Shown: positions 47,586-50,117 of the stretch, piece by piece
Layout: each line of letters begins with the position of its first letter
Position numbering within the stretch: position 1 is the stretch's first letter
Assembly: GCA_030652335.1 (NCBI GenBank)
Contig: JAUSAW010000002.1
Span: 205,866-269,865 of the forward strand
Length of the DNA stretch: 64,000 bases
From: Gammaproteobacteria bacterium
Lineage (GTDB): Bacteria > Pseudomonadota > Gammaproteobacteria > Francisellales > CACEW01
Reading direction: 5' to 3'
The notes under the pieces: model-generated
The model's input: the letters and a program-made list of their open reading frames with translations, nothing else
Database searches by the model: none
What the model was told of the DNA's origin: nothing
Program-made: the position numbers and the translations under genes

Positions 47586-48605
47586 ATGGCACATAAAGCA
47601 AACGTCTTAATTATCTACACTGGCGGCACTATTGGCATGCAAAAAAGCGCCAAAGGCTTTATTCCTGTATCAGGCTTTCTCACTCAACAATTACTAAGCC
47701 TCCCAGAATTTGCAGACCCAGCCCTGCCAGCATTTACCGTAATGGAATATTCCCCTCTAATCGATTCATCCAATATGCGCCCTGAAAATTGGGTACAAAT
47801 CGCCGGTGATATCCTTGAAAATTACAATCAATATGATGGGTTTATCGTACTGCATGGTACAGATACCATGGCCTATACGGCCTCCGCCCTATCCTTTATG
47901 TTAGAAAATCTTGCCAAGCCTGTTATTTGTACCGGCTCTCAAATCGCCTTGGGCCAACTTCGTTCCGATGCCACTAAAAATATTATCGACAGCCTATTAA
48001 TTGCTGGTCTCAATAAGATTCCCGAAGTCTGCGTGTATTTCAACAATATCCTATTAAGAGGCAATCGAACTCAAAAAGTCCATGCTAATAGCATGCAGGC
48101 CTTTGCCTCTCCTAATTACCCAGATCTAGGGAATGCAGGCATCACTATCCATATCCATGAAAACCACCTTCAATCCATGCCTAAAGCAGCTCTTAGCCTG
48201 CGAGTGATTAAACAACCCCTTATTGCTAACTTACGATTATTCCCTGGGATTTCAGCTAAAATTTTCCAGGCTTTATTTGATCAAGGCATCGATGGCTTAG
48301 TCTTAGATACCTATGGCTCAGGGAATGCACCCAATAACGATCCTGAATTACTAGCTTGTATTAAACAGGCCTGCGACAAAGGCGTGGTTATCGTGAATAT
48401 CAGCCAATGTGCACAGGGATCTGTCGATATGGCAGGCTATGCTACTGGAACGGCTTTAGCCGATTGTGGAGTAATAAGTGGTTTTGATATGACGCCAGAG
48501 GCGGCTTTAACAAAACTATACTATTTATTTAGTGCTGATTATTCGATTGCAGATATTCGATCGCTTATGCAAAATAATCTGCGCGGTGAATTAAGTTCTA
48601 AGTAA
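47586..48605 (+). CDS. ansA: L-asparaginase, type I (cytoplasmic)
   Basis: LIIYTGGTIGM (catalytic Thr), HGTDTM, length 339 aa. Confidence 0.9.
   Translation: MAHKANVLIIYTGGTIGMQKSAKGFIPVSGFLTQQLLSLPEFADPALPAFTVMEYSPLIDSSNMRPENWVQIAGDILENYNQYDGFIVLHGTDTMAYTASALSFMLENLAKPVICTGSQIALGQLRSDATKNIIDSLLIAGLNKIPEVCVYFNNILLRGNRTQKVHANSMQAFASPNYPDLGNAGITIHIHENHLQSMPKAALSLRVIKQPLIANLRLFPGISAKIFQALFDQGIDGLVLDTYGSGNAPNNDPELLACIKQACDKGVVIVNISQCAQGSVDMAGYATGTALADCGVISGFDMTPEAALTKLYYLFSADYSIADIRSLMQNNLRGELSSK
48475..48605 (+). repeat. Direct repeat copy 1 (functional 3' end of ansA)
   Basis: 131 bp that recur at 49986-50117 with 5 substitutions and one 1-bp indel, by my manual alignment. Confidence 0.85.
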
Positions 48606-48622
48606 ACATTTCTTTCTGTAGG

Positions 48623-49849
48623 CTAGAGATAGCCTACAGGTAGTTGTAAAATTTTTGGAGTGAGCCACTCAATCTTATCGGCTTGATTAATCACCAATCC
48701 GAACGGTAAATTTCGCTCTTCGATAAATTGTTTAAGCGCGCTTAGTTGTTTTAATTGAACCTTTTCACCATATTTAATTTCAATGGGCAAAGTACCGAAA
48801 GGCCCATCGATAATTAAATCTATTTCTGCACCATTTCGAGTGCGATAATAATACGCCTGCCAATTAGTGACATTCGTTGCTGACAATCCTTTCAATATTT
48901 CTTCAATAACAAAGCTTTCAAATGAATGACCAACCTGAGGATGGGAATAAAGATAATCTAAATTATTTATCTTAAGCAAATAATGCAAAAGCCCATTATC
49001 TCTGATATGGCCTTTAGGCATCTTAACTACTGACTTCAAACTATCACGTTCGAAACTAGGAAGCTGTCGCCACAAATAAGTTCCATCTGCAATAGACAAA
49101 TATTCCCTTACGCTACCCTCACTGGCTTCAAGGCCCCGGCCTATTTCTACTCTATTAATTTTAGTGCCAGATAAATGGCTCATAATCCCAAGAAATCTTT
49201 GATAAGTTTGGCGATTTAGGCGTGGAAATAAATTAGCTATATCACGATTAATATAAGTCGCTCTATAGTTATCCATCCATAAATCAAAATATCCCGGGTT
49301 TAAAAGTGGCTCAGGATATCCTCCTTTTAGCCAGATTGTATGCACAGCCTCTTTTGATAAAGACTTTAAATCTTTTGGTAAATTCTCGATAGCTAAGGGC
49401 TGATCAAATAATTGATAAAACTTGCTAAGCGGTTGCTGCGCATATTCATTGACTTTAAGCGTGCCAAGCTCAACCAGAGCGATCCTTCCAGCCAATGATT
49501 CCGATATTTGAGTTAATAAGTCTGGGCTACTAGAGCCCGTAAGAATAAATCGACCTTTTTTTTGCCTGTCCTGATCGATGACTCCACGTAATACTTGAAA
49601 TAACTCTGGATATAACTGCGCTTCATCTATAATGACATTTTTGGGGTATTGGCTAAAGAAAAACACTGGATCATACTTAATACGATCATAATCATTTGGA
49701 TTTTCTAGATCAATATAATGCCAATCTGGTGATACTTGCTTTGAAAGGGTTGTTTTACCACATTGCCTTGCACCTAGTATGGCAACTACCGGAAAATGGT
49801 TTAGCAAATTTTTAACCTTGCCATAATGATTTCGAATTATACCAGTCAT
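48623..49849 (-). CDS. AAA-family ATPase with C-terminal DUF4143-type domain (COG1373-like)
   Basis: Walker A GARQCGKTT, Walker B VIIDEAQ, length 408 aa. This is the family usually annotated 'ATP-binding protein, DUF4143'. Confidence 0.8.
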   Translation of the reverse strand: MTGIIRNHYGKVKNLLNHFPVVAILGARQCGKTTLSKQVSPDWHYIDLENPNDYDRIKYDPVFFFSQYPKNVIIDEAQLYPELFQVLRGVIDQDRQKKGRFILTGSSSPDLLTQISESLAGRIALVELGTLKVNEYAQQPLSKFYQLFDQPLAIENLPKDLKSLSKEAVHTIWLKGGYPEPLLNPGYFDLWMDNYRATYINRDIANLFPRLNRQTYQRFLGIMSHLSGTKINRVEIGRGLEASEGSVREYLSIADGTYLWRQLPSFERDSLKSVVKMPKGHIRDNGLLHYLLKINNLDYLYSHPQVGHSFESFVIEEILKGLSATNVTNWQAYYYRTRNGAEIDLIIDGPFGTLPIEIKYGEKVQLKQLSALKQFIEERNLPFGLVINQADKIEWLTPKILQLPVGYL

Positions 49850-49922
49850 TTTCGAACGCTCCGTACGAAATATACTGGTATAATAGCCTGGTTAGGTAAA
49901 ATTTACAAGAAAATAACCTAAA

Positions 49923-49985
49923 TTAGCGCCTAGTTTGAAAAAATGCTTTCAGTAACGCCGAAAATTCATCTTTATGATTTAAAAA
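49923..49985 (-). pseudogene. Decayed fragment resembling the 3' end of tadA
   Basis: ttagcgcc..gaaaaaaTGCTTTCAGTAACGCCGAaaATTC...GATTTAAAAA compared with the tadA 3' end at 51936-52030 (ttaacggcgc..gaaaaaaAGCTTTCAGTAATGCTGAggATTC...GATTTAAAAA). A ~34-nt core matches at about 29/34, with internal deletions. Confidence 0.5.
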
Positions 49986-50117
49986 CTAAGTGGCTTTGAT
50001 ATGACGCCAGAGGCGGCTTTAACCAAACTATACTATTTATTTAATGCCGATTATTTGATTGCAGATATTCGATCGCTTATGCAAAATAATCTGCGCGGTG
50101 AATTAAGTTCTAAGTAA
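49986..50117 (+). pseudogene. Direct repeat copy 2: orphaned, frameshifted ansA 3' fragment
   Basis: 132 bp homologous to 48475-48605. An extra A near the end (gtgaaATTAAG vs gtgaATTAAG) changes the terminal reading frame. No upstream ansA body is present. Confidence 0.85.

Follow-up and report, generated by a model that had tools for sequence, protein, structure and literature searches.

We examined the interval between the convergent core genes ansA and tadA in a 64,000-nucleotide stretch of contig JAUSAW010000002.1, from a gammaproteobacterial genome of the order Francisellales (the window, by which we mean this whole stretch). Two cargo genes occupy the interval, one encoding an ATPase with AAA_14 and DUF4143 domains and the other a TPR protein, and between them stand two orphaned gene ends, one of tadA and one of ansA. 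The gene order reported in an earlier note on this DNA, i.e., ansA, ATPase, tadA 3' fragment, ansA 3' fragment, TPR gene, tadA, is correct, and the pieces that make up the arrangement are as follows:

47586–48605, plus strand: ansA, type I L-asparaginase, intact, 339 amino acids (Pfam Asparaginase and Asparaginase_C; NCBIfam NF006998)
48475–48606, plus strand: repeat copy A, the 3' end of the functional ansA, stop codon and one further nucleotide included (ungapped match to copy B)
48623–49849, minus strand: ATPase with AAA_14 and DUF4143 (PD-(D/E)XK) domains, intact, 408 amino acids (Pfam; PADLOC PDC-S01)
49923–49985, minus strand: remnant of a tadA 3' end, reading FLNHK / DEFSALLKAFFQTRR, with its stop codon kept (DNA and peptide similarity searches)
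49986, no strand: a single base, C, at the illegitimate junction between the tadA remnant (tadA') and the ansA orphan (ansA'), matching neither parent sequence in an ungapped comparison
49987–50118, plus strand: repeat copy B, the orphan ansA 3' end, in frame, without a start of its own, running into the upstream region of the TPR gene
50207–51907, plus strand: TPR protein gene, 566 amino acids (Pfam TPR_12/TPR_10)
51936–52388, minus strand: tadA, tRNA adenosine(34) deaminase, intact, 150 amino acids (NF008113; Pfam MafB19-deam/dCMP_cyt_deam_1)

Both core genes were assigned through curated equivalog models, ansA matching NF006998 with an E value of 7e-141 (469 bits, curated cut-off 376) and tadA matching NF008113 with an E value of 4e-61 (206 bits, cut-off 150). 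The two copies of the ansA 3' end are identical at 127 of 132 positions, align without a gap and lie exactly 1512 bp apart; their five substitutions, given as copy A/copy B, are 48482 T/C, 48512 A/C, 48532 G/A, 48536 T/C and 48544 C/T, and the final 62 bp are perfectly identical. When the window was compared with itself by BLAST, as the earlier note had proposed, this pair was confirmed and proved to be the sole dispersed repeat in the 64 kb (146 bp, 93%, E 3e-57). The five substitutions had been counted correctly, yet a 1-bp insertion said to frameshift the orphan does not exist: copy B had been started one base early, at 49986 for 49987. As the offset is a multiple of three, the orphan keeps the ansA frame through to the stop codon, and its translation reads SGFDMTPEAALTKLYYLFNADYLIADIRSLMQNNLRGELSSK.

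Two of the substitutions are non-synonymous in copy B (S to N and S to L) and fall on residues that are conserved in the window and in three related contigs (L002, L088 and L172). The other three are synonymous and, by outgroup comparison, derived in the functional copy A; because the outgroups are 26–30% diverged in this segment, the polarity of all five differences is only suggestive. Identity between the copies drops one base past the ansA stop, from 5 differences in 132 positions inside the repeat to 6 in the 15 positions just beyond it (Fisher test, as run on 5/131 against 5/15, p = 0.001).

The tadA-like fragment is likewise real, as it is significant both as DNA and as peptide. A blastn search of 49850–49990 against the window, with the query region masked, returned the tadA 3' end as its top match (E 1.5e-4, runner-up 0.41), and a six-frame search with the remnant's 20-amino-acid peptide returned the tadA C-terminus (E 4e-4, runner-up 0.33). 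The core of the remnant (49937–49970, compared with 51950–51983) matches at 28 of 34 positions, rather than at about 29 as the earlier note had put it. Relative to intact tadA genes, the remnant shows a single 27-nt in-frame gap and has its stop in the homologous position; the C-terminus of the resident tadA reads FLNHRLEISSGVMAEESSALLKAFFLQRR. Over the aligned bases, its identity to the tadA genes of the window, L002 and L088 is alike, at 76–78%, and the match to the tadA 3' end of L172 covers 53 nt at 75% (E 9e-4). Among 120 tadA homologs, its C-terminus is closest to that of P0247/L172 (FFNHKLEMTSGTLAEESAALLKAFFQSRR), with which it has the lysine after NH in common; P0247/L172, considered as a donor on the strength of this search, was rejected, its locus being of the TPR type.

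On the plus strand, the order at the junction is tadA 3' end followed by ansA 3' end, the reverse of that at an intact convergent junction. The two ends of a donor segment are thus joined inside the product, with tadA' (49923–49985) adjoining ansA' (from 49987) and one base between them, a permuted order of the kind that arises when one locus copy contributes its right end and a second copy its left part. The junction and the copy-B variants were also found in a separate assembly, as Logan contig L001 (SRR13727531, 1510 bp) is identical to window positions 48577–50086.

The ansA/tadA interval in related genomes

The sample of relatives comprised six or seven genomes at genus level and none at species level, and the content of the interval in those with an informative contig, together with the amino acid identity of their ansA products to that of the window, is given below:

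Window: ATPase and TPR genes in the interval, a combination seen in the window only
L088: ansA 80% identical; interval empty, stop codons 1 bp apart
L002/L170: ansA 79% identical; TPR gene alone in the interval
L169: ansA 79% identical; TPR gene alone in the interval
L172: ansA cut by the contig end; TPR gene alone in the interval
L171 (more distant): ansA 66% identical; rimB-like gene, rimK and an ankyrin gene in the interval

L002/L170 and L169 form a clade, from which the window and L088 are about equidistant, and the ansA product of the window is 79–80% identical to those of L002, L088 and L169. Neither the ATPase gene nor a duplicated ansA end was present in the TPR-type loci (L002/L170, L169 and L172), where 56–147 nt separate ansA from the TPR gene. 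We attempted to place the insertion point by aligning these spacers across the relatives, and they were not alignable. In an ancestor resembling L088, an insertion would be harmless only in the single nucleotide that separates the ansA and tadA stops. The TPR gene is an old, fast-evolving occupant of the junction, since its positional orthologs in the window, L002/L170 and L169 are just 34–46% identical at the amino acid level, far more diverged than the flanking core proteins (73–91%, or 79–90% by another reckoning).

The ansA/tadA junction is accordingly a variable spot, as relatives differ in what it holds, and the ATPase gene and the 1512-bp structure are found in the window only. Related genomes had been expected to carry the ATPase gene, the TPR gene or neither between intact ansA and tadA genes; TPR-only and empty forms were indeed found, and an ATPase-only form was found in none (L002, L088 and L169–L172). 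The proposal that the junction is a cargo hotspot is borne out in that its content varies, whereas the stacking of alternative cargo at this site rests on one genome.

In the more distant relatives L171 (8269–10588) and L089 (1134–1352), where ansA is 63–66% identical, the next gene is rimB-like and lies on the other strand; in L171, rimK and a gene with ankyrin repeats come between it and tadA. This rimB-like–rimK–ankyrin set may be an older content of the interval.

Origin of the 1512-bp unit

We hold, with moderate confidence, that the 1512-bp unit is a recombination scar, left by the arrival of an accessory gene at a variable spot that two core genes enclose. Two versions of the locus, ansA–ATPase–tadA and ansA–TPR–tadA, would have existed in closely related genomes and would have been brought together by homologous exchange within the last ~130 bp of ansA and by one illegitimate join, which linked a site 63 nt within the 3' end of one tadA to a site in the other ansA, 131 nt short of its stop codon (49985/49987). 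The exchanged fragment could have been circularised and integrated by a single crossover, or it could have been linear and taken up by homology-facilitated illegitimate recombination; as both routes give the same product, the structure does not speak for the Campbell type in particular. In the product, the two cargo genes and an intact ansA would stand beside the orphaned 3' end of ansA and the scrap of tadA, these in permuted order, and the abrupt end of identity at the ansA stop is expected if the two versions carried different cargo starting there. Either version could have been the resident one, as the data fit both. The ATPase version may itself have been a mosaic, its tadA-side flank having come together with the ATPase gene from a genus-level relative at an earlier time: two adjoining orphan pieces should decay at an equal rate, so that the tadA flank must have been foreign before the structure arose. 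Such an earlier transfer is the simplest addition to the model, with gene conversion acting on the ansA copies as an alternative. The ATPase gene would have brought its own upstream control region.

Several observations weigh against this history. Divergence of the two flanks is unequal, the ansA copies being 96% identical and tadA' only ~76% identical to every sampled tadA and shortened by the 27-nt deletion, so that either at least one extra earlier event or gene conversion in ansA must be assumed. At the illegitimate junction we found no clear microhomology, and one base is untemplated. No donor locus of the form ansA–ATPase–tadA turned up in any collection searched, L002, L088 and L169–L172 included, and the closest homolog of the ATPase is 67% identical (leaving aside MDO8953476.1, the entry from the source metagenome-assembled genome, on a 470-kb contig), with all five homolog contexts that were examined unrelated to this locus. 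Hence, of the single-crossover model put forward earlier, the permuted junction, the direct repeats and the lineage-specific insert hold up, while its one close-relative donor misfits the unequal flanks. The broader interpretation, i.e., that an accessory gene was added through recombination at the ansA 3' end without a dedicated recombinase, is partly supported. A Pfam scan found no integrase or transposase in the 1.4-kb insert, in agreement with the earlier note, and no integrase, transposase, excisionase or phage gene was found in the insert or in the open reading frames (ORFs) scanned across 40.6–60.1 kb (~8 kb upstream to 10 kb downstream).

A rather unlikely alternative is that the insertion occurred in situ, right after the stop of a resident ansA in an ansA–TPR–tadA locus, with duplication of the preceding 131 bp. 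The foreign fragment would then consist of 17 nt, the ATPase gene, 73 nt and the 63-nt tadA end, derived from a genus-level relative and acquired by illegitimate recombination, and a repair- or replication-associated duplication would have produced ansA copies that were at first identical and later drifted. This has the merit that one step accounts for ansA copies at 96% beside a tadA scrap at ~76%, and the differences between the copies do resemble drift, being synonymous in the functional copy and non-synonymous at conserved serines in the orphan. Their distribution is nonetheless lopsided for drift alone, with three changes over ~33 synonymous sites in copy A against two over 131 neutral sites in copy B (p ~0.06 by a rough binomial estimate), and the insertion must have landed by chance exactly on the base following the stop. 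No common bacterial mechanism is known to duplicate 131 bp of target around an insert, and this, too, counts against in-situ insertion.

We consider it improbable that the unit descends from a site-specific integrative element whose target was the 3' end of ansA, for which it carried a replacement, whether its integrase and most of the element have since been deleted or the unit was mobilised in trans. The cargo, a candidate defence gene, would suit such an element, as would a duplicated 3' end in which a 62-bp identical tract is preceded by mostly silent differences; homologous exchange or gene conversion would, however, leave such a tract in a duplicated target just as readily. Neither an integrase or excisionase gene nor any phage gene was seen in the region scanned, the orphan junction borders on its element side on a tadA end in place of an element arm, and close homologs of the ATPase are solitary, with no recombinase among their called neighbours.

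Less probable still is an artefact of assembly or of population structure, in which an empty ansA–TPR allele exists beside a separate 1512-bp circular or tandem form, or a mixture of strains was mis-threaded through the 62-bp repeat; the assembly graph agrees with either just as well as with the assembled order. The source is a metagenome-assembled genome, and the Logan unitig coincides exactly with the stretch between the branch points expected at k = 31 (48577–50086); since it ends at both of these points, the second assembler left the 62-bp repeat unresolved. The tadA'/ansA' junction was nonetheless assembled by two assemblers, with no long k-mer in common across it, and an identical tract of just 62 bp can be spanned by reads of 100–150 nt. 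A 1.5-kb circle without a replication gene, furthermore, would not persist. As for a tandem duplication of an ancestral ansA–X–tadA followed by replacement of one cargo copy, it would yield exactly such a permuted junction, but it is barely credible, as it needs the extra replacement step, it predicts that the tadA scrap should match the resident tadA as closely as one ansA copy matches the other, which is not the case, and four relatives (L002, L170, L169 and L172) have the TPR gene at this position with nothing duplicated. A transposon or insertion sequence was rejected (no transposase, no inverted repeats at the insert ends and a duplication of 132 bp rather than 2–15 bp), as were an integron cassette and a prophage (no integrase or phage genes and no attC-like site).

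The proposed scar was then set beside known systems. With Campbell-type integration, as seen with suicide plasmids, it shares the direct repeats of a homologous segment around the insert, the intact target gene and the possibility of pop-out; it differs in that there is no vector or replicon, the 'circle' being a chromosomal segment that needs one illegitimate join to close. Of the features that mark such integration, the bracketing direct repeats and the permuted junction of donor ends were found at the locus, whereas the donor arrangement was not found in a relative (in a thin sample without species-level genomes) and the flanks are not equally diverged. Homology-facilitated illegitimate recombination, which has reportedly been described in naturally transformable bacteria, offers the same homologous anchor, here the ansA 3' end, and the same illegitimate join that brings foreign DNA beside a core gene; the cases described are said usually to delete recipient DNA, while here 131 bp are duplicated.

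Prophage e14, which is integrated at icd in Escherichia coli, carries a replacement 3' end of its target gene. Elements of this kind resemble our structure in having a duplicated 3' end of ~130–165 bp, few and mostly silent differences and the orphan at the far end; in contrast to them, the present insert has no integrase, consists of one gene in 1.4 kb and ends in a scrap of the other neighbour gene. Finally, pan-genome studies have described hotspots of defence and accessory genes flanked by conserved core genes. The ansA/tadA interval likewise varies in content between fixed core genes, and one of its cargos matches PDC-S01; it departs from defence hotspots in holding one defence-like gene only, as the TPR, rimK/rimB and ankyrin genes are not defence genes.

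Taken together, the structure is a clear instance of a known and fairly ordinary type of recombination scar. It would provide an example, resolved to the base, of a solitary accessory gene entering the chromosome between core genes without a dedicated recombinase, with the leftover gene ends recording the ATPase gene's former place beside tadA in another lineage, and it marks the ansA/tadA junction as a variable spot in an uncultured gammaproteobacterial clade. It is also a rearrangement in a single genome that known recombination routes can explain, and the scar does not reveal what the ATPase does. A bolder idea, to which we give very little credence, is that the unit is a minimal cassette that needs no integrase and is guided by homology: its 132-bp repeats would recombine to free a circle capable of re-insertion, which the ATPase might promote by cutting empty sites in a homing-like manner. 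Were this so, the circle would comprise the gene for an ATPase-nuclease, its control region and one ansA arm, and could re-enter the ansA 3' end of any relative by host recombination; this would help to explain why solitary PDC-S01 genes lie by housekeeping genes in many genomes, and also the frequent breaks of assemblies at the edges of these genes.

The ATPase gene and its control signals

The ATPase matches Pfam AAA_14 (E 4e-26) and DUF4143 (E 9e-37) and, over residues 4–407, positions 12–416 of the 422 of PADLOC profile PDLC04790 (PDC-S01; E 7.7e-92); six more PDC-S01 profiles match as well. DUF4143/COG1373 is listed within the PD-(D/E)XK superfamily (PMC3424549), and an AAA ATPase joined to a PD-(D/E)XK domain is the two-domain architecture of PDC-S01 (PMC12988326). 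Residues G26..G31-K32-T33 of the Walker A motif, D75-E76 of Walker B and the E342-x-D344 ... E357-x-K359 motif are invariant in 12 homologs, the window ATPase among them, and because all of these motif residues are kept, the gene looks functional, as judged from its sequence. PDC-S01 ranks as the fourth most common prokaryotic defence candidate and awaits validation (PMC12988326); in challenges with T4, T5 and T7, the one representative tried was outside the four candidates that protected (bioRxiv 10.1101/2024.09.26.614923). The window ATPase agrees with PADLOC's PDC-S01, a single-gene candidate for phage defence, along the full length of the profile, in its two domains and in its conserved catalytic motifs, and can be regarded as a candidate anti-phage defence gene of this family. 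Among solved structures, none has detectable sequence similarity to it.

At 35–39%, the G+C content of the ATPase gene is below the 42–46% of the flanking core genes. Homologs at 64–67% identity are solitary genes by housekeeping genes in the five contexts examined, which include rplJL-rpoB, dapF, urocanase and alr following dnaB; none is related to ansA/tadA, and no recombinase is present among the called neighbour genes. A search of plasmid and phage collections placed members of the family on 367 plasmids and 7 phage-like contigs, and no vehicle could be identified among them, since all are <40% identical.

The signals found around the gene are the following:

48616–48639, no strand: perfect hairpin with a 9-bp stem, ctgtaggct-agagat-agcctacag (read from the sequence)
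49836–49884, minus strand: inverted repeat over the ATPase start codon, with 23-nt arms, 83% complementary, and a 3-nt spacer (repeat search)
49880–49908, minus strand: promoter-like site TTGTAA-17-TATTAT, a candidate for the ATPase gene (consensus scan, 9/12)

The hairpin overlaps the ATPase stop codon and lies in the 17-nt gap between the convergent ends of ansA and the ATPase gene; it was not called in a terminator scan because it has no T-run. The inverted repeat over the start codon has counterparts in a like arrangement at L082 (5958–6030), L084 (5955–6022) and L086 (5955–6022). Its outer arms, CCAGT(CA)/(TG)ACTGG, take in the codons ATG-ACT-GG, an inner hairpin is present, and of the 11 pairs in the consensus fold, 2 show compensatory changes, in an alignment of four sequences only. 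It could be a hairpin in the 5' untranslated region that masks the start codon, or a DNA operator. The promoter-like site falls within the 73 nt that separate the stop of tadA' from the ATPase start codon and is a candidate only, as such sites are no more numerous in the region than in shuffled sequence.

Some further observations concern the homologs. In L083 (1141–4023), two distinct AAA_14+DUF4143 genes (450 and 408 amino acids) follow dapF in tandem, with palindromic ATCTATCCTTT...AAAGGATAGAT motifs upstream of the first and between both; the pair is a possible example of stacking within the ATPase family. In L082, a 26-nt direct repeat (5936–5961 and 7246–7271, 24 of 26 positions) brackets the ATPase homolog; each copy forms one half of a terminator-like hairpin, and a third, weaker copy was found at 5379–5404, so that it may belong to a dispersed terminator family and not be an insertion scar. 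Contigs L082, L086 and L087 end 60–340 bp beyond the ATPase gene. A general rule by which these genes are bracketed by duplicated flanks was considered and not established, given the terminator-like repeat of L082, the lack of a repeat in L084 and the early ends of the L086 and L087 contigs.

Other variable intervals and minor observations

Two more intervals on the backbone tsf-rpsB-map ... ansA ... tadA ... guaA-guaB-folD differ between the genomes. In the window, four ORFs of 164, 375, 177 and 388 amino acids, none with a Pfam match, occupy 43700–47545, between map and ansA; L002 and L169 lack them, with ansA almost directly following map, and this interval is a second variable spot. The interval between tadA and guaA (52441–53124 in the window, 13241–15108 in L002, 9474–10592 in L088 and 4037–6642 in L172) is a third, with one ORF in the window and in L169, two in L088 and three in L002 and L172, all without Pfam matches; the translations from the window, L002 and L088 carry a hydrophobic stretch at the C-terminus, by eye resembling a membrane anchor.

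The self-BLAST of the window also returned two self-complementary stretches between convergent ORFs, at 59231–59325 (~95 nt, 75%) and 3486–3521 (36 nt, 92%), which are probably bidirectional terminators or long hairpins. In the unrelated genome GCA_014902315.1, L168 (JACOKF010000001.1, 7001–8659) encodes a 552-amino-acid protein with two sets of matches to the asparaginase N- and C-terminal domains, which may mean that ansA was duplicated internally or fused.

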